Positions 7,081 to 22,710 are shown, numbered from the stretch's first letter. The stretch is DNA of 64,000 bases from an uncultured Mycoplasmatota bacterium (GCA_948465965.1 CAOJYR010000004.1:2734-66733); one strand, 5' to 3'. Numbers and translations are program-made. The notes: generated by a model from the sequence alone, not told the origin.

Positions 7081-7416
7081 ATGTATCAAAATAAGATAGC
7101 ACTTATGCCACAAGATATTTTGGAGAAAGATTTTAAGATTGATACAAGAGGATATCGTTTGAAAGAGGTAGATCAATTTCTAGATATTATTATTGGAGAT
7201 TATGAACAATTTTTGAATATTATTAATACTCTTGAGAAAGAAAAGGCTGATCTGCTTGGGGAGATTATGAATTTAAAGCAGGAGCTTAGGAATTCTAAAG
7301 TTAGTATGGAAGTTGCTAGAAATAGTAGTGAGATTCCAGAAGTTACTAATGTTGATATTTTAAGGCGTCTTTCGCAACTTGAAAAGATGGTATATGGAGT
7401 TAATAAGGACAATTAA
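7081..7416 (+). CDS. gpsB: Cell-cycle protein GpsB (DivIVA-domain)
   Basis: N-terminal DivIVA/GpsB motif DILEKDFKIDTRGYRLKEVDQFLD followed by a coiled coil. rnpB lies downstream, as in Bacillus. Confidence 0.85.
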   Translation: MYQNKIALMPQDILEKDFKIDTRGYRLKEVDQFLDIIIGDYEQFLNIINTLEKEKADLLGEIMNLKQELRNSKVSMEVARNSSEIPEVTNVDILRRLSQLEKMVYGVNKDN

Positions 7417-7765
7417 TATATAGACAAACGCTGGTGTTTTTAAGATGCTAGAGGAAAGTCCATGCTCGCACAGTCTGAGATGATTGTAGTGTTCGTGCCT
7501 AGGGAAAAAATAACCTAGGGTAGAGTAATCTAACGGCAGATGATAATCTAAGTCCATTGGATATGATTTAGTCTTGAAAAGTGCCGCAGTGACGATTTTT
7601 TTGGAAACAAGAAAGTGAAACGTGGTAAACCCCGCGAGCGAGAAACCCAAATTTGGTAGGGGAGTTCTAACGAAGGAAATGAATGGAGTTAGGAACCGGT
7701 TTTCGGTAGATAAATGTTTGTCGCCTAGTAATAGGAACAGAACATGGCTTATTTATATTTATTGT
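7409..7765 (+). ncRNA. rnpB: RNase P RNA (bacterial type B)
   Basis: Universal core strings GAGGAAAGTCCATGCTCGCAC (7451-), AGTGCCGCAGTGACG, GGTAAACCCCGCGAGCGAGAAACCCAAATTTGGTAGGGG and ACAGAACATGGCTTA. A putative P1 helix pairs 7409-7420 (acaattaatata) with 7754-7765 (tatatttattgt) with one mismatch. The exact ends are uncertain. Confidence 0.85.
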
Positions 7766-12121: not shown

Positions 12122-12538
12122 TTGCTTCTTTTTTATTGGGAGTCTTTTTCTTTTTTGTTAATAATATTAATGAGGGGGGTGGTTTTTATAAATACTAAAA
12201 ATCGACTTTTTTTGTTTTGGCAAATTGGTAAATGTGTATTTGAAACTCATAAAGATATAGAAAATATAGCTTTTAAGATATCAAATTTTTATAGTTATAA
12301 ATACGGTCTTGATTATACTTTTTCTGTTGAGAATATAAATAGAATGAAATGTTTTTATTTATGCTTTCCTGTTTATAATTCTTATTTAGAGAAACTTTCA
12401 TGGGAACAGTATTTAGAACTCATAGAAATTGAAGACAGAGATAAAAGATTATTTTATTTTAAAACAAGTATTTTTTGTAACTTTTCTTTGGAAGAGTTAA
12501 TATTTGGTATTGATAACTTTTATTATGAAAGAATATAA
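12122..12538 (+). CDS. Stand-alone DUF1016/YhcG N-terminal-domain-like protein (no nuclease domain); start codon uncertain
   Basis: FWQIGKCVFE...FSVENINRMKCFY...LSWEQYLELIEI....FSLEELIFGI..FYYERI parallels the N-terminal half of the full-length DUF1016 protein at 33834-34748. Confidence 0.4.
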   Translation: MLLFYWESFSFLLIILMRGVVFINTKNRLFLFWQIGKCVFETHKDIENIAFKISNFYSYKYGLDYTFSVENINRMKCFYLCFPVYNSYLEKLSWEQYLELIEIEDRDKRLFYFKTSIFCNFSLEELIFGIDNFYYERI

Positions 12539-16167: not shown

Positions 16168-17193
16168 ATGGGATTTTTTAATAAAATAAAAGATATGTTT
16201 AAAAATAGTACTTCTTCTAATGAGATAGTTTCAGAAGGGGAAAACCAGGAAGTTAGTAAGGTAGAGGAAGAGGTAAAGATATATGAAAAGGGTTTAACTA
16301 AATCTAGAGAAGGTTTTGTATCTAAACTTGCAAATCTTACTAATAAATATCGAACTATTAATGATGATTATTTTGATGAGTTAGAAGAAATCTTAATCAT
16401 GGCTGATATTGGTGTTAATACCGTTATGGAGTTTATCGATAGACTTAGAGATAGGGTTGTTAAAGAAAAAATTGATGATCCTAATGTGTTGAAAGAAATT
16501 ATTGTTGATGAATTATTTATTATTTATGTTAATGATGAAGTATTGGTTAATAAAATTAATTTTAGTGATGATGGTCCAACTGTAGTTTTATTTGTTGGTG
16601 TTAATGGAGTGGGAAAGACAACTACTATTGGTAAGCTTGCTAATAAGTTAAAATCCGAAGGTAAGAAGGTTTTATTGGTTGGGGCTGATACTTTTAGAGC
16701 TGGCGCTGTAGCTCAACTTGAGGAGTGGAGTCGTAGGATAGATGTCTCATTTTATGGCAAAGAAGAGGGAAGTGATCCGGCTAGTGTTGTTTTTGATGGT
16801 TGTACAAAAGCAAAAGAGGAAGACTTTGATGTTGTTTTAGTAGATACTGCGGGACGTCTTCAAAATAAGGTTAACTTAATGAAGGAGTTGGAAAAAATTA
16901 ATAAGGTTATTGGTCAGATTATAGAAGGTGGTCCACATGAGACGCTCTTAGTAATTGATGCTACTACTGGGCAGAATGGAATTAGTCAGGCCAAAGCTTT
17001 TAAAGAAATTACTAATATAACTGGAATTGTATTAACAAAATTGGATGGAACTGCAAAAGGTGGAATCGTACTTGCTATTAAAGACGATGCTGGTCTTCCT
17101 GTAAAGTATATTGGACTTGGAGAAGGAAAGGATGATTTACAAGTATTTGATATTGAAAAATATATTTATGGTTTATTTAAGGATATGATTTAG
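16168..17193 (+). CDS. ftsY: Signal recognition particle receptor FtsY
   Basis: SRP GTPase motifs GVNGVGKTTT, DTAGR, TKLDG. Confidence 0.95.
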   Translation: MGFFNKIKDMFKNSTSSNEIVSEGENQEVSKVEEEVKIYEKGLTKSREGFVSKLANLTNKYRTINDDYFDELEEILIMADIGVNTVMEFIDRLRDRVVKEKIDDPNVLKEIIVDELFIIYVNDEVLVNKINFSDDGPTVVLFVGVNGVGKTTTIGKLANKLKSEGKKVLLVGADTFRAGAVAQLEEWSRRIDVSFYGKEEGSDPASVVFDGCTKAKEEDFDVVLVDTAGRLQNKVNLMKELEKINKVIGQIIEGGPHETLLVIDATTGQNGISQAKAFKEITNITGIVLTKLDGTAKGGIVLAIKDDAGLPVKYIGLGEGKDDLQVFDIEKYIYGLFKDMI

Positions 17194-17201
17194 GAGATAG
17201 T

Positions 17202-17465
17202 ATGAAAAGTGGAGAAAAGAAGGCAAATACGATTAATTCACTTAATATTGTATTTGTTGATATTCAAATTGTATTAACTGTTCTTACAGTTATTTTAGCT
17301 ATAGTAGTTTTATTTTATCAAGATATGATGAGGGTATTTCAACTATCTTTGGGGTGTTGCTTGTTAATGATGGCCTATAATAATCAAAAAATATATAAAA
17401 GAAAAAATATTACTATTATTTATGTAGTAGTTGGAATTATTTTATTGATATGTTTGGGAGTATAA
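17202..17465 (+). CDS. Small hydrophobic protein (2-3 TM), unknown function
   Basis: An ORF tightly packed between ftsY (8-nt gap) and ylxM (1-nt gap). Hydrophobic segments only. Confidence 0.4.
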   Translation: MKSGEKKANTINSLNIVFVDIQIVLTVLTVILAIVVLFYQDMMRVFQLSLGCCLLMMAYNNQKIYKRKNITIIYVVVGIILLICLGV

Positions 17466-17466
17466 A

Positions 17467-17760
17467 ATGGAAAATGTAATTTATTTTAATGATTTATATG
17501 ATTTGTATGGTAATTTATTAACAGAAAAACAAAAAATGTATTTTGAAGATTATTATTTTAATAATCTAAGTCTTTCCGAAATGGCTGAAAATTATAATGT
17601 AAGTCGAAATGCTATTTTTAAACAAATTCATATTGTAATAGATAAGTTAGAGGAATATGAAAAAAAACTTGAATTATATAAAAAGAAGAAGAGTATAGAA
17701 AATATTATATTGGAATTAAATGATGAAGATATAAAAAAACAACTTGAGGAGTTGTTCTAA
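17467..17760 (+). CDS. ylxM: YlxM / UPF0122 putative DNA-binding protein (SRP-operon associated)
   Basis: LYDLYGNLLTEKQKMYFEDYYFNNLSLSEMAENYNVSRNAI is the classic YlxM pattern. Confidence 0.85.
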   Translation: MENVIYFNDLYDLYGNLLTEKQKMYFEDYYFNNLSLSEMAENYNVSRNAIFKQIHIVIDKLEEYEKKLELYKKKKSIENIILELNDEDIKKQLEELF

Positions 17761-17794
17761 GTGAAATAGTATTCTTATGCTATTTTTTTGTTTG

Positions 17795-18499
17795 TTATTT
17801 ACGTGATTGTGGTGTATAGATTAGTTTTTTAGCTTGGGAATAATCTTTGTTTTGTAATTTTTCTAAAGTGCTTCCAAAAGCTATGATTTCTATAAAGCAT
17901 CTTTGAGGTGGAGTAAAAATATTGTTAGTTTTCTTTGCTGCTTGGCTTAGTCCTCGGTTAAATACTGCTAATTTTGCATTTGGAATACTTTTTCTTGTGT
18001 TTAATAATTCTTTTGCTATTGTAATGAAGTCCTTTTTTACTATTTCTTGTTTTTTAGTAAAGTCTTGAAAGACTAAGATTTTATTTTCTTCATCGGACTT
18101 TTCATCTTCTATACATTCATATAAGTATTCTTTTATATAATTAAAAGTATTATATGCCCCTTCATAGTTTAAAATATTTCTTTCATCTTGAAAGAAAGTT
18201 TCTAAATAGGCGATATTACTTACTAGCTCTTCTTTTTCTCTTAAAATACTTTCCTTAGGTGTTCTAAGCACTTGGTAATGTTCAACAAAATATAGGTTTG
18301 ATATATCTGGATTTTTTTCTTGGTACTTTTTAGCAATCCATTTTACTTCTTCATCATTTAGGAGAAGTATTTCTTGTGTTAAAGGTCCTTTTTTATTATT
18401 TTCACTTTCAAAGATAAAATTATGTCTTAGAAATCTTAAATCATAAATTTTAATATTTTTCATTAGTGATAGGCATTTTTCTTTTCTATTCTTTTCCAT
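17795..18499 (-). CDS. Hypothetical cytoplasmic protein (234 aa), no recognisable motif
   Basis: Long ORF on the opposite strand, transcribed divergently from the HerA-like ATPase gene. Helix-rich, Lys/Glu-rich composition. Confidence 0.5.
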   Translation of the reverse strand: MEKNRKEKCLSLMKNIKIYDLRFLRHNFIFESENNKKGPLTQEILLLNDEEVKWIAKKYQEKNPDISNLYFVEHYQVLRTPKESILREKEELVSNIAYLETFFQDERNILNYEGAYNTFNYIKEYLYECIEDEKSDEENKILVFQDFTKKQEIVKKDFITIAKELLNTRKSIPNAKLAVFNRGLSQAAKKTNNIFTPPQRCFIEIIAFGSTLEKLQNKDYSQAKKLIYTPQSRK

Positions 18500-18630
18500 G
18501 TGACCTCCTTAAACGCGGTTTATATTATACCATTGTTTCTTGTTTGATTCAATTATTACTTGTAAAATATAAGAAAAGAAGGTATAATTTTTGTATATGA
18601 TAGGGGTATTTTAGAATAAGGGGATAGCTT

Positions 18631-20892
18631 ATGTTTGATAGAATTATATATATTAGTGATCATTCAGCTAATATTAAACTTAAGGATAGTGAAAATCTTG
18701 CGATTAATTTGATGAATCTACATCTTATTTTCGAGGATAAAGATAAGAAGGTTCTTGGAGAAGTCGATGATTTAGATGGCGATGTTGTTAAAGTGCGTTT
18801 TCTTGGTGAGATTGTTGATGGTAGATTAATTGGCGGTACTATTCGTAAACCTTCTTTAGATGCTAGTGTTAGGGTAGTGGATCAGTCTGAAATTCCTATG
18901 ATTGTAGGTGAAGATAAAGAGGGATATATGCGTTTTGGTGTTAGTCCTTTTTACAATGGTTTTCCAGTTTTTCTAGATGTTAATAGTTTTTTTAGTAATC
19001 ATTTTGCTATATTTGGTAATAGTGGATCTGGTAAATCCTGTGGTGTATCAAGACTTTTTCAGAATATGTTTCATGATAAAAGATTATTTCCTTATAAGTC
19101 TAATATTTTACTTTTTGATTCATCTGGAGAATATTATAATGCTTTTAGCAATTTAAATTCTATTGATCCAAATTATCATTATAGATTTTTTAGTACAAAT
19201 GAGGCAGAAGGACTTGGTGAAAAATTAAGATTGCCTATTTGGCTTTTAAATGCAAGTGATTTAGCATTATTATTACAGGCTACCAATCATTCTCAACTTC
19301 CAATTATTGAGAGAATGTTGAAACTTGCTTTAATATTTTCTCAGACAGATGTGGATGCTACTAATTATAAAAATCATTTGATAGCTAAGGCTATTATGAC
19401 TATTTTGTATACTAATGAGACTTCTCCTAACAAAAGGAATGAAATCTTTTCTATTTTAGCTAGTTGTTCTACTCCACAGTTTAACTTGGAGGCTCCTGTT
19501 AAAGGAATTGGTTATACGAGAAAATTTAGAGAATGTTTTTTGATTGATTCACAGGGGCAGTTTTCGGAAAGTGTGTTGCTTACTGAATATGTTTCATCTT
19601 TTATTAAGAGTGAATATGATAGCTATGAACCTAAGGGTGGTGTATTCTATACATTAGATACATTAGAAAAAGCACTTAATTTTACTTTAATTAGTGAGGG
19701 ATGGCTTAGAAATGAGAATACTTATGGAGATGCTGTTACTATTAAGGTTAGACTTCATTCTCTTATTGTAGGAGATTATGCGAAATATTTTGATGTAGCT
19801 GATTATATTTCACTTGAGGCTTATTTATCATCTTTATTAATTAATAATGGTCGTAAATATCAAATTGTTAATATTAATTTAGATGATGTAGATGATGATT
19901 TTGCAAAGGTTATTACTAAAATTTATTCACGTCTTGTATTTGAATTCGCAAAAGGATTGCAGGATAGAGCAAGTATACCTTTTCATATTGTTGTAGAGGA
20001 GGCTCATAGATATATTCAAAATGATACGGATAGATTCTTGATTGGTTATAATATATTTGAACGAATTGCTAAAGAAGGACGTAAGTATGGCGTTATATTA
20101 GGTCTTATTTCTCAAAGACCAGTTGAACTTTCGGATACTGTTATCTCTCAATGTTCTAATTTTTTGATATTTAAGATGAATCATCCTACAGATGTTGATT
20201 ATATTAGAAAGATGGTTCCTAATATTAGTGATGAGATTGTTGAGAAGCAGAAAACTTTACAATCTGGAACTTGCTTAGGTTTTGGTATGGGATTTAAAAT
20301 TCCATTGATATGTAAGTTAGAAATGCCTGATCCCGCTCCTTGGAGTGGTAACTGTGATGTTGTGAATATTTGGAAAGGGGATAATCGTTCATCTAGTTCT
20401 AATGTTAGGGTTGCAGTTAATGATGAAGTTGATAATAATATTCAACAAGACGTTGTTGTTCCTCAATTTGCTAGTGATCAAGCAAATATGTCTTTAGTTA
20501 AACCTTTGGTTGATGTAGTAGATGATCCATCTAGCTCTAATTTAGGTTTTGATAATAATGTTATTTCTAACTTAGGTGGTACTCAGAATCAACCATTGGT
20601 AGATATTACGAATCCTTTAGGAAGTGTAGATACTTTTAATAACTCAGATGCTTTTTCAAACCTATCTAATGATATAAATACTTCTAGACCATTAGTAGAT
20701 ATTATTGATGAAGGGGGACGTCAATTAGCAGATTTAGGAGATAATAATTTACCATCTTTGGGAGGTTTTTCATCTGTTGAAGATAATGCCCCTACTCTGA
20801 CTCCACTGGGTGATAATTCAATTAGTTTAAACGACTCATTTGGACCTGTTACTAATACAGGAAAGCCATTAGTATCTGTTATAGATGAATAG
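18631..20892 (+). CDS. HerA/FtsK-superfamily (DUF87-type) P-loop ATPase with ~175-aa low-complexity C-terminal tail
   Basis: N-terminal barrel-like segment (VVKVRFLGEIVDGRLIGG), Walker A (FGNSGSGKS), Walker B-like HIVVEEAHRY, and GRKYGVILGLISQRPVELSDTVISQCSNFLIFKM, which is typical of HerA/DUF87 ATPases. Confidence 0.75.
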   Translation: MFDRIIYISDHSANIKLKDSENLAINLMNLHLIFEDKDKKVLGEVDDLDGDVVKVRFLGEIVDGRLIGGTIRKPSLDASVRVVDQSEIPMIVGEDKEGYMRFGVSPFYNGFPVFLDVNSFFSNHFAIFGNSGSGKSCGVSRLFQNMFHDKRLFPYKSNILLFDSSGEYYNAFSNLNSIDPNYHYRFFSTNEAEGLGEKLRLPIWLLNASDLALLLQATNHSQLPIIERMLKLALIFSQTDVDATNYKNHLIAKAIMTILYTNETSPNKRNEIFSILASCSTPQFNLEAPVKGIGYTRKFRECFLIDSQGQFSESVLLTEYVSSFIKSEYDSYEPKGGVFYTLDTLEKALNFTLISEGWLRNENTYGDAVTIKVRLHSLIVGDYAKYFDVADYISLEAYLSSLLINNGRKYQIVNINLDDVDDDFAKVITKIYSRLVFEFAKGLQDRASIPFHIVVEEAHRYIQNDTDRFLIGYNIFERIAKEGRKYGVILGLISQRPVELSDTVISQCSNFLIFKMNHPTDVDYIRKMVPNISDEIVEKQKTLQSGTCLGFGMGFKIPLICKLEMPDPAPWSGNCDVVNIWKGDNRSSSSNVRVAVNDEVDNNIQQDVVVPQFASDQANMSLVKPLVDVVDDPSSSNLGFDNNVISNLGGTQNQPLVDITNPLGSVDTFNNSDAFSNLSNDINTSRPLVDIIDEGGRQLADLGDNNLPSLGGFSSVEDNAPTLTPLGDNSISLNDSFGPVTNTGKPLVSVIDE

Positions 20893-20966
20893 AAAGAGGC
20901 AGGTTATCCTGTTTTTTCATTTACTTAATATTTCTTTTTATGTATAATAATTAATAGGTGATAAAA

Positions 20967-22274
20967 ATGTTTGAGAGTTTAGGAGATCGTTTACAAAATG
21001 CAATTCATAAAATAAAGGGTTATGGTAAGATAACCGAAGATAATATTTCTGACATGATGCGGGAGATTCGTCTTGCATTACTTGAAGCTGATGTTAATTA
21101 TAAAGTTGTTAAAGAGTTTACAAATTCTGTTAAGGAAAAAGCTTTGGGAGAAGAAGTAGCTAGTAGCATTAATCCAGGAGATTTATTTGTAAAGATAGTT
21201 AAGGATGAACTTACTGAGTTATTGGGTGGAGAAAATGCTCCCTTAAATTTGAAGGGTGATCCAGCAATTTTAATGTTGGTTGGTTTACAAGGATCAGGAA
21301 AAACTACAACTATTGGAAAGCTCGCTAATTTTTTACGAAAAAAACATAGTAAAAAGCCTTTGCTTGTTGCTTGTGATGTTTATAGACCTGCGGCTATCGA
21401 TCAGTTAAAACAAATTGGTAAGCAGCTTAATATAGAAGTATATGAGGAAGGCAAGAAGGATCCTGTTGAAATTGTTAATCATGCTATTTGTTATGCTAAA
21501 GAAAATGGATATGATTATGTTTTAGTTGATACAGCAGGTAGACTTCATATAGATACTGAACTTATGGATGAATTAGATAATATAAGGAATAGTATTAATC
21601 CACAAGAGATTTTATTAGTAATTGATGCTATGATGGGACAAGATGCTATTAATGTTATAACTGGTTTTAATGATAAGTTACCTCTTACGGGTGTTATTCT
21701 TACCAAACTTGATGGTGATACTAGGGGTGGTGTTGCGCTTTCTGTTAGACATCTAACACAGGTTCCTATTAAGTTTATGGGCATTTCAGAAAAATTAGAT
21801 GGGCTTGATTCCTTTGATCCTGAGCGAATGGCTGGAAGAATTTTGGGAATGGGTGATATTGTTTCGCTTGTTGAAAAAGCGACTGAAGCTATTGATGAAA
21901 AGGAAGCAGAGAAAACAGCCAAAAGAATGCAACAAGGGAAATTTGATTTAGAGGACTTTTTATCTACTATGAAGCAGATGAAGAAACTTGGGCCCCTTGA
22001 GAATCTGATTAAATTGATTCCGGGTGCTAAAAAAATGGGTCTAAATAATGTTAAAATAGATCCAAAACAGATGGCTCATATTGAGGCTATTGTTTTATCT
22101 ATGACTCCTAAGGAAAGACGCAATCCTGAGATTATTAAGGCAAGTCGTAAAACTAGAATTGCCAAGGGAAGTGGTACTTCAGTACAAGAGGTTAATAGGC
22201 TTTTACAGCAATTTGATCAAATGAAAAAGATGATGAAGCAAATGGCAGGAGGAAATTTAAAATTACCTTTTTAG
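20967..22274 (+). CDS. ffh: Signal recognition particle protein Ffh
   Basis: MFESLGDRLQ start, GLQGSGKTTT, DTAGR, TKLDGD and a Met-rich M domain. I set the start at ATG 20967 behind AGGTGA. The track ORF starts at GTG 20958. Confidence 0.95.
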   Translation: MFESLGDRLQNAIHKIKGYGKITEDNISDMMREIRLALLEADVNYKVVKEFTNSVKEKALGEEVASSINPGDLFVKIVKDELTELLGGENAPLNLKGDPAILMLVGLQGSGKTTTIGKLANFLRKKHSKKPLLVACDVYRPAAIDQLKQIGKQLNIEVYEEGKKDPVEIVNHAICYAKENGYDYVLVDTAGRLHIDTELMDELDNIRNSINPQEILLVIDAMMGQDAINVITGFNDKLPLTGVILTKLDGDTRGGVALSVRHLTQVPIKFMGISEKLDGLDSFDPERMAGRILGMGDIVSLVEKATEAIDEKEAEKTAKRMQQGKFDLEDFLSTMKQMKKLGPLENLIKLIPGAKKMGLNNVKIDPKQMAHIEAIVLSMTPKERRNPEIIKASRKTRIAKGSGTSVQEVNRLLQQFDQMKKMMKQMAGGNLKLPF

Positions 22275-22380: not shown

Positions 22381-22710
22381 ATGTTTGAATCAGGTATGAA
22401 TAATAACGTTGATTTCGATTCGACTGTTATTGGTAACAATAATGTTGTTGATAATGAGATGAATGTTGATATTAATATGATGAATAATAATGGGGGCCAA
22501 ATGATGCAAATGAATAGTCCAATTAGTGAAGCTGTTCAAGAAAAATGTATTCATAAAACAATCGTACATGAAGTTCCTCATGTATGTCCAATCCATACAA
22601 GAATAATTAATCATCATGTATATAAACATACTTATAGACCACGCTATACTTGTTCTGAAGAAAATACTGTTAGCAATGTTCAATGTGGTTCTTGTTGTAA
22701 TTTTCGTTAG
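22381..22710 (+). CDS. CotD-family spore coat protein-like, with Asn/Met-rich N-terminal extension
   Basis: The His/Cys-rich C-terminal half (HKTIVHEVPHVCPIHTRIINHHVYKHTYRP...CGSCC) resembles the B. subtilis CotD pattern. A strong RBS (GAGGAGG) lies upstream. Confidence 0.55.
   Translation: MFESGMNNNVDFDSTVIGNNNVVDNEMNVDINMMNNNGGQMMQMNSPISEAVQEKCIHKTIVHEVPHVCPIHTRIINHHVYKHTYRPRYTCSEENTVSNVQCGSCCNFR

Follow-up and report, generated by a model that had tools for sequence, protein, structure and literature searches.

The stretch of DNA analysed here, to which we refer as the window, comprises 64,000 nucleotides from an uncultured Mycoplasmatota bacterium (GCA_948465965.1, CAOJYR010000004.1:2734-66733). 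Between ylxM and ffh, within its signal recognition particle (SRP) cluster, lie two divergently transcribed genes: herA, encoding an ATPase of 753 amino acids (aa), and orf234, encoding a protein of 234 aa. Our analysis makes it very likely that the 753-aa protein is a stand-alone HerA ring ATPase, the product of a vertically inherited core gene, and that orf234 is not its partner. Taken together, the data are probably best explained by a partner-less ("solo") core HerA in uncultured, low-GC, cell-wall-bearing gut Bacilli. To our knowledge, bacterial HerA has been studied almost only as an anti-phage motor or platform, with Sir2 or DUF4297, or as the partner of NurA in end resection. None of our full-text literature searches brought up a paper that describes a solo, core-genome clade of HerA in Bacilli.

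The 753-aa protein belongs by sequence to the HerA family

The herA open reading frame (ORF) occupies 18631..20892 on the plus strand according to the ORF list. Its core, aa 1-588 (18631..20394, +), consists of an N-terminal beta-rich domain, a RecA-like ATPase domain with a helical insertion, and a C-terminal brace, as assigned from matches to DUF87, to the PADLOC HerA profile and to HerA proteins in the Protein Data Bank (PDB). The protein scored 73.6 bits against Pfam DUF87 (PF01935; cut-off 23.2), matched the PADLOC HerA profile PDLC04102 over aa 93-588 with an E-value of 1.5e-106, and was matched by nine HerA-type PDB sequences, the best at 1.7e-45.

The motifs expected of such an ATPase are all found in the translation. 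Walker A, GNSGSGKS, at aa 129-136 (19015..19038, +) aligns with GSTGSGKS of the solved HerA 9c1m. The Walker B region, HIVVEEAH, at aa 452-459 (19984..20007, +), overlapping the VVEEAHRY string at aa 454-461, aligns with IVCEEAH of the same structure. The arginine-finger block spans aa 483-497 (20077..20121, +), from GRKYG at aa 483-487 through SQRP at aa 494-497, and both EGRKYG and SQRP are identical in 9c1m; QC...LIFKM follows at aa 507-516. Each of these motifs is invariant among 30 relatives. Judged by sequence, the catalytic blocks (Walker A, Walker B and arginine finger) are intact and the 753-aa protein falls within the HerA family. A first-pass annotation of this DNA had proposed this identity from the same motifs, and the Pfam, PADLOC and PDB matches uphold both the identity and the motif positions.

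Affiliation with better-known subfamilies was not found. Pfam FtsK_SpoIIIE (PF01580) gave 13.3 bits where the cut-off is 24, and there were no matches to the FtsK alpha, gamma or four-transmembrane (4TM) domains. The NCBIfam anti-phage equivalogs HerA_antiphage and HerA_antiphage_2 reached 172.4 and 135.7 bits, with cut-offs of 850 and 800, respectively, and the NCBIfam HerA repair equivalogs scored 110 against 800 and 86 against 970. As to the putative HerA-ATP synthase (HAS) barrel, alignments with HerA structures begin only at aa 49-55; within the solo clade, conservation does extend over the first ~60 residues.

Solo herA resides in core-gene neighbourhoods

We scanned one genome per species, giving 80 loci, all from uncultured gut Bacilli or 'Tenericutes' represented by metagenome-assembled genomes; the hosts include Ca. 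Faecimonas, Ca. Onthousia and one closed chromosome of 1.52 Mb. In all 76 loci with enough flank, ylxM lay directly upstream of herA, and in most of them herA was flanked immediately by ylxM on one side and ffh on the other. The gap between them measured 61-250 bp and held no gene in 64 of these loci, the other 12 bearing insertions. On three contigs with close homologues of the ATPase, ftsY, a small ORF, ylxM, herA and ffh follow one another on one strand, with no 234-aa gene. The patchy, island-borne distribution typical of defence genes was not seen among the 80 species genomes, whose loci had been retrieved via herA.

A search of 1.84 billion representatives returned 4324 relatives of the ATPase, only 229 of them below 1e-30. 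One deep-branching relative, P0274, which is 45% identical to the window HerA, again shows the order ftsY-x-ylxM-herA-ffh. Others reside at different loci: P0277 (43% identical) in the arrangement PP2C-herA-sepF-divIVA...ileS, P0279 (39%) between rpmH and dnaA, at the origin, and P0130 (43%, from a tail-less sister lineage) directly after rmuC with a gap of 43 bp, on two contigs that differ upstream (L097, 4331-7172; L098, 1793-4634). The rmuC product was recognised by Pfam RmuC and is a predicted recombination nuclease; this rmuC-herA arrangement is the only candidate nuclease pairing that we saw in the solo clade. The more remote P0137 (L093; 31-33% identity) forms a SIR2_2-HerA pair in a defence island.

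A metagenome scan, in which contexts were assigned by marker mapping, neighbour clustering and Pfam, added 80 further loci (L100-L179). The order ylxM>herA recurred in 18-19 of them, including tail-less forms that are only 53-61% identical to the window protein and have gaps of 1-25 bp. Another 11-12 loci showed yqeG-yqeH>herA, the GTPase and the HAD phosphatase being confirmed; herA>sepF(-divIVA) was found in 10, in addition to L087 and L088, and herA>dnaA in two, and there were several smaller recurrent contexts besides. Across ~180 neighbourhoods, no SIR2, NurA-like, Mre11, Rad50 or other effector gene was linked to solo herA. Specifically, no SIR2 gene lay within 6-8 kb of solo herA at the ~180 loci, and L100-L179 contained no SIR2 match.

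The herA core is very probably inherited vertically and evolves as slowly as ffh

In neighbour-joining trees, all solo members formed one clade, sister to the clade that holds the SIR2-linked HerA, and each context type formed a monophyletic subclade of its own. Such a pattern would be expected of a core gene that descends vertically and is only rarely relocated, unlike a mobile defence gene.

The HerA core is 65-91% identical across the 80 species, and Ffh is 82-91% identical in relatives. Across species, median identity to the window was highest for Ffh (88.0%), followed by the HerA core (77.6%), FtsY (73.2%), YlxM (58.8%) and RecX (58.3%). Comparison with the closest relative in our set yielded ratios of nonsynonymous to synonymous substitution (dN/dS) of 0.059 for the herA core, 0.070 for ffh, 0.10 for ftsY, 0.19 for ylxM and ~0.75 for the C-terminal tail. 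Purifying selection on the herA core is as strong as on Ffh.

orf234 is an unrelated, sub-lineage-restricted neighbour

The orf234 gene (17795..18499) lies on the minus strand in the ylxM-herA spacer. The first-pass annotation had called the ORFs correctly (234 aa on the minus strand, a divergent ORF of 753 aa, the end of ylxM at 17760 and the start of ffh at 20967), and its remark that the 234-aa protein has no recognisable motif agrees with our scans of Pfam, PADLOC, NCBIfam and PHROGs, none of which returned a match. With its single sequence as query, a search of 5.8 billion proteins found orf234 itself and one 89%-identical sequence only; a profile built with the locus homologues enlarged the family to 30 clusters. 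The ATPase, in the same protein set, had more than 8000 clusters, the top 120 of them at 72-96% identity. Between orf234 and its ~33%-identical homologues there are 56 invariant columns. orf234 is a real gene.

That annotation had further regarded the two genes as a single 3.2-kb insert between ylxM and ffh and the 234-aa protein as a possible partner or effector of the ATPase. In its strongest form, this idea is of a module, inserted as a unit, in which a HerA motor works with a nuclease- or NADase-like orf234 effector in defence or end processing. The genes are indeed adjacent and divergent, with back-to-back promoter-like sites, and it is defence HerAs that the ATPase matches best in both profile and structure searches. 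Homologues of orf234 also adjoin herA at the same position in six loci (L008, L009, L014, L019, L020 and L094), the divergent member in L094 being accompanied by two extra genes. However, 70 of the 76 loci keep herA in its place and have no orf234, the family is tiny next to that of the ATPase, and one member, P0304 (L096), resides on a 7.8-kb contig without herA. Where both genes are present, orf234 homologues are 32-36% identical and herA is 76-83% identical in those same genomes. The surroundings of herA are a housekeeping cluster and not a defence island, and both its conserved place there and its Ffh-like slow evolution speak against the pairing as well. Lack of co-occurrence and a conserved housekeeping position of the ATPase were two of the outcomes that the annotation itself had named as refuting its idea.

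The predicted fold points in the same direction. An AlphaFold2 (AF2) model of orf234 built from 23 sequences reached a predicted local distance difference test (pLDDT) score of 90.4 and a predicted template modelling (pTM) score of 0.87, and consists of 16 helices, all of it alpha-helical. Foldseek found no neighbour of this model in the PDB (best E = 3.5) or among the viral structures of BFVD (best E = 2.4). The NurA/RNase H-like, PD-(D/E)XK, Sir2 and TIR folds, which had been suggested as ones to look for, are excluded, since each needs a beta-sheet core. The co-occurrence data thus refute the two-gene module as a general statement, and we find it barely credible. The orf234 product is all-helical and unrelated to the ATPase; its family is tiny and restricted to a sub-lineage, and it is not a HerA partner. 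What had been read as one insert reflects two independent events of very different age: herA is an old, lineage-wide gene, and orf234 is a recent, sub-lineage-restricted arrival in the ylxM-herA spacer.

The same spacer is a recurrent insertion spot, with unrelated cargo in 12 of the 76 loci. The cargo seen includes HD-domain-like proteins, a multi-transmembrane protein, a class II tRNA-synthetase-like gene, and a LysR regulator together with an uncharacterised gene (insertion loci L025, L036, L045, L048, L049, L051, L086 and L094). We also considered orf234 as phage or mobile cargo and rejected the idea: it has no PHROG match, no relatives on viral contigs and no anomaly of composition. Base composition across the window reveals no foreign island.

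In the window's lineage herA looks like an insulated transcription unit

Intergenic regions were compared in ~60 related loci. A hairpin followed by a T-run comes straight after ylxM throughout this set; in the window, the element (17764..17792, not assigned to a strand) lies between the convergent ylxM and orf234 and is terminator-like, possibly bidirectional. It was read by eye, the consensus terminator scan having missed it. Next comes a sigma-70-type herA promoter, CTTGTAA/CTTGTCA-N17-TATAAT in the related loci, after which come a leader that is likewise conserved and a GAGGGG Shine-Dalgarno sequence; the window version, TTGTAA-17-TATAAT (18560..18588, +), was recognised by consensus scan and by inspection of the sequence. 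Directly 3' of the herA stop codon, an intrinsic-terminator-like hairpin with a T-run (20894..20917, +; consensus scan) is of the ACAGGGTAACCTGTTTTTTT type, with counterparts at the same place in relatives. The ffh promoter, TTTACT-17-TATAAT (20920..20948, +; consensus scan), is separate from that of herA and is conserved in relatives as GTTTACTT...TGTATAAT, with TTTACT-N17-TATAAT. The window carries all four signals conserved in the lineage, so that on sequence grounds herA there seems to be transcribed monocistronically, insulated from the SRP genes around it.

The site where orf234 was inserted lies between the post-ylxM hairpin and the herA promoter. Its own promoter-like site, TTGAAT-17-TATAAT with a TG element (18524..18552, minus strand), stands back-to-back with the herA promoter and is a consensus match alone, of a kind that is not above chance in this AT-rich region. 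An Rfam scan found no known RNA in the ylxM-ffh region.

These signals bear on the possibility that the ATPase serves protein targeting or secretion together with YlxM, FtsY and Ffh. Other members of the FtsK-HerA superfamily, such as VirB4, VirD4 and EssC, do power protein secretion. The ylxM-herA adjacency persists down to 53-61% identity, where the short gaps of the tail-less forms leave no room for a promoter; the older ylxM-herA arrangement may accordingly have been operonic, to judge by those gaps. Yet sister groups keep herA at the unrelated yqeGH, sepF, dnaA and rmuC loci, in the window's lineage herA is shut off by the terminator-like hairpin before it and by having a promoter and a terminator to itself, and there is no conserved membrane or channel partner, the small transmembrane (TM) ORF of the cluster being absent from many genomes that keep herA. 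We therefore consider an SRP-linked function very unlikely.

Two further observations concern the region upstream of the herA start codon. The 5' leader (18596-18625, +) is conserved in the lineage as TATGATAGGG...AGAATAGAGGGG, with two ATAG(A)GGG-like elements; this conservation exceeds what a ribosome-binding site needs, and the leader may be a regulatory element. SOS regulation through a LexA/Cheo box was considered and dismissed: the GAAC...GTTC hairpins that several loci show upstream of herA have a spacing of 8-9 nt, not 4 nt, and are followed by T-runs. We read these hairpins as probable ylxM terminators.

A C-terminal tail with short recurrent motifs

The window protein continues beyond its core into a disordered tail rich in N, S, P and T (aa 589-753; 20395..20889, +). 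Such an extension is confined to one subclade of the ylxM-linked group, which includes both the window and P0274; most of the wider solo clade is tail-less. The tails vary in length from 19 to 379 aa, share the N, S, P, T-rich composition and cannot be aligned between species. They nevertheless hold recurrent short motifs of a hydrophobic-acidic kind (PLVD[IV]x). P[LI][VIL]x[VILFM][VILTSG] turns up 54 times among 74 tails, compared with 1.4 times in shuffled sequences (~40-fold), and 29 tails have it among their final 20 residues, where 0.15 would be expected (~190-fold). A second group of tails ends in [IV]PE[IML][DNA], with 35 occurrences against 0.45 expected. Four copies of the form PLV[DS][VI]x are present in the window tail (aa 625, 655, 687 and 746), and the sequence GKPLVSVIDE at the C-terminus contains the final one.

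Tail ends differ among sub-lineages: some read EPLITVPI...SLDINDIINAPD or IIIPGGQNV...GFGG, others PL[VI]x[IL]T/D..., [IV]PEIN..ETL or SLVSF[IL][DE]N, and the tail of the deep-branching P0274 ends in SPLSSFIDNM. That the terminal motif changes with the sub-lineage suggests co-evolution with a partner, and the overall pattern resembles the signature of a disordered linker bearing short docking peptides. Tentatively, then, the tail could be a docking device. The first-pass annotation had named action through the unusual tail as its fallback, and the motif statistics strengthen that idea. We examined the small two-TM ORF of the SRP cluster as an obligate tail partner and rejected it, as tailed herA persists in genomes without that ORF.

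The tail enters into two other explanations. The first sees solo HerA as a domesticated immune sensor, that is, a fixed anti-phage or anti-plasmid HerA with an unlinked effector, recruited in the window's lineage through the tail motifs. Multivalent motifs would suit recruitment, a HerA ring does activate an effector in HerA-DUF4297, the closest solved structures are defence HerAs, the sister clade holds the SIR2-HerA pair in a defence island, and one solo member pairs with RmuC, a predicted nuclease. In contrast, contexts track phylogeny at core loci, purifying selection equals that on Ffh, the ~180 neighbourhoods revealed no effector, most clade members have no tail, and the NCBIfam anti-phage HerA scores fall far below their cut-offs (172 against 850 and 136 against 800). 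On balance, a domesticated immune sensor is unlikely.

The second explanation is that of an FtsK analogue: a motor-linker-anchor DNA pump, docked at the division site by its tail motif, which would clear or segregate chromosomes during septation and so replace FtsK in reduced genomes. The ring motor, low-complexity linker and terminal anchoring element would amount to a reversed FtsK architecture, sister groups place herA right upstream of sepF-divIVA or beside dnaA, and Iyer et al. in 2004 reportedly proposed HerA as the archaeal counterpart of FtsK. However, counting only Pfam-verified matches, we found canonical FtsK genes with the full set of 4TM, alpha, motor and gamma domains on the solo-herA contigs L154 and L166 and a partial one in L146. 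On L154 the order between 1261 and 9733 is ftsK, a PNP-family phosphorylase, two M16 peptidases, herA, sepF and divIVA, with the canonical ftsK and solo herA only 3.4 kb apart in the same orientation. Most members are, moreover, tail-less, and the acidic terminal motif is no membrane-targeting helix. In these sister lineages, which differ from the window's own, canonical FtsK is thus present alongside solo HerA; this weakens the notion of a substitute and shows that solo HerA does not replace FtsK in general. Overall, we hold the FtsK analogue to be quite unlikely.

A proposed housekeeping role for solo HerA

Our preferred reading is that of the stand-alone core HerA, and for this protein a housekeeping role in DNA handling comes close to an even call. 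We favour such a role on four grounds: the kind of selection on the gene, its vertical descent, the places where it lies (oriC, the tail of the division cluster and one RmuC pairing) and the absence of any effector. As in other members of the HerA family, the solo protein would assemble into a hexameric ring. It might use ATP to act on DNA or move along it, or else might scaffold and activate an unlinked DNA enzyme. The setting would be routine chromosome maintenance, such as repair, recombination or support of segregation, rather than mobile anti-phage defence. Where a tail is present, its motifs could provide multivalent docking and so hold the ring to a partner. It is possible, if rather doubtful, that this whole radiation of gut Bacilli depends on a housekeeping, partner-less HerA, kin to SIR2-HerA, whose tail in one large sub-lineage plugs into a partner in chromosome maintenance or the cell cycle.

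Several points weigh against this reading, or limit the evidence for it. HerA function is deduced here from the family to which the protein belongs and from how the gene behaves across genomes. An AF2 model of the ATPase, computed from 30 sequences that were all 72-96% identical, reached a pLDDT of only 34.6 and was not used, so that ring, pore and barrel are putative. The nearest solved relatives of the ATPase are all anti-phage HerAs. In HerA-DUF4297, HerA alone did not bind double-stranded DNA and acted as an activating platform for the effector (10.1101/2024.10.24.620088); a role as DNA translocase should therefore not be assumed for the solo protein. Our trees were built by neighbour joining and carry no support values, and the dN/dS comparison was made at a dS of ~1.1, near saturation. 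Every locus had been retrieved via herA, so the counts cover herA-bearing genomes only and are not absence rates. Promoters and terminators were called as consensus matches backed by conservation. Finally, orf234 and herA have a 131-bp divergent promoter region in common, and a second family member, P0300, occupies the same position; within that sub-lineage the two genes may be linked in their regulation.

Other features of the window

The SRP cluster around herA is headed by ftsY (16168..17193, +), which encodes the SRP receptor (Pfam SRP54, 1.8e-77, and SRP54_N). The conserved order of the cluster, ftsY-(small TM)-ylxM-herA-ffh, is kept in relatives. An ORF of 87 aa with two predicted TM segments (17202..17465, +) stands between ftsY and ylxM. 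It is lineage-specific, with homologues of 31-59% identity in 48 of the 80 related species loci, is missing where ftsY and ylxM abut, and represents a second lineage-specific insertion within the SRP cluster; herA also occurs where it is missing. ylxM itself (17467..17760, +) encodes a helix-turn-helix protein of UPF0122 (Pfam PF04297, 2.4e-25) and is the conserved upstream neighbour of herA. The conserved downstream neighbour, ffh (20967..22274, +), encodes SRP54 with its N, GTPase and M domains (Pfam SRP54_N, SRP54 and SRP_SPB). We place its start at the ATG at 20967, as the GTG at 20958 falls inside the Shine-Dalgarno sequence and homologues begin with MFESLGDRL.

Downstream of ffh, a gene for a His/Cys-rich protein of 109 aa (22381-22710, +) takes the place of rpsP and has a weak match to the spore-coat protein CotD (E = 0.004). 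This ORF is kept 3' of ffh in most relatives, followed by rpoZ and recX. Farther away, the sole Rfam match of the window, a class B bacterial RNase P RNA (281 bits; 7415-7756, +), comes directly after the gene for a 111-aa DivIVA-domain (GpsB-like) protein; just upstream of that gene and the RNA, on the minus strand, are recU and a gene for a class A penicillin-binding protein. Right after rny lies an ORF of 138 aa (12122-12538, +) whose match to DUF1016 (YhcG-like, E = 2e-16) is confined to the N-terminal domain; it may be what is left of a PD-(D/E)XK-type gene after truncation.

Significance and comparison with known systems

Here HerA appears as a partner-less, vertically inherited protein encoded in core operons (SRP, yqeGH, the tail of the division cluster and oriC) of abundant uncultured gut bacteria. 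If the housekeeping reading is true, an uncharacterised core function has been identified in these bacteria, and the clade offers a natural test case for the kinship between an immune-type and a housekeeping ATPase, along with a short and statistically clear tail motif that could be used as bait for the partner. It would also imply traffic between immune and core functions of HerA, in either direction, and a new bacterial DNA-handling factor. On the practical side, defence-finder tools would flag solo HerA as a defence HerA, as its PADLOC match illustrates, which creates a risk of misannotation.

Among known systems, the best solved match is HerA of HerA-DUF4297 (PDB 9C1M, 9C1N, 9C1O and 9C5X), found at 1.7e-45 with the window protein alone and at 3.8e-65 with the clade profile. 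Walker A, EEAH, EGRKYG, SQRP and the C-terminal '...LE.P.P.P.S' brace align nearly residue for residue, whereas aa 223-414 (the helical insertion, ~190 residues) and the first ~50 residues of the window protein remain unaligned. Unlike its counterpart in HerA-DUF4297, solo herA has no DUF4297 or other effector nearby, occupies fixed core positions, is under strong purifying selection and, in the window's lineage, has acquired a tail. The SIR2-HerA systems (PDB 8XAU and 8J4U) belong to the same family, and the SIR2_2-HerA of P0137, at 31-33% identity, falls into the sister clade. In contrast to them, solo herA has no SIR2 gene within 6-8 kb, scores below the NCBIfam anti-phage cut-offs and lies outside defence islands.

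FtsK and SpoIIIE are members of the same superfamily of ring-shaped P-loop pumps, and some members of the solo clade adjoin division genes, but the window protein has none of the 4TM, alpha and gamma domains, and its order of motor, linker and putative anchor is reversed. HerA-NurA, the end-resection system of archaea and Deinococcus-type bacteria, shares the HerA core (2.2e-30 to Sulfolobus HerA, PDB 4D2I). It differs in that no NurA, Mre11 or Rad50 gene neighbours solo herA at the loci examined, orf234 is not NurA-like, and the linked nuclease candidate is RmuC, in one sister lineage. As a housekeeping, chromosomally fixed motor of DNA repair, HerA-NurA is nonetheless a plausible functional analogy for the solo HerA of these gut Bacilli.

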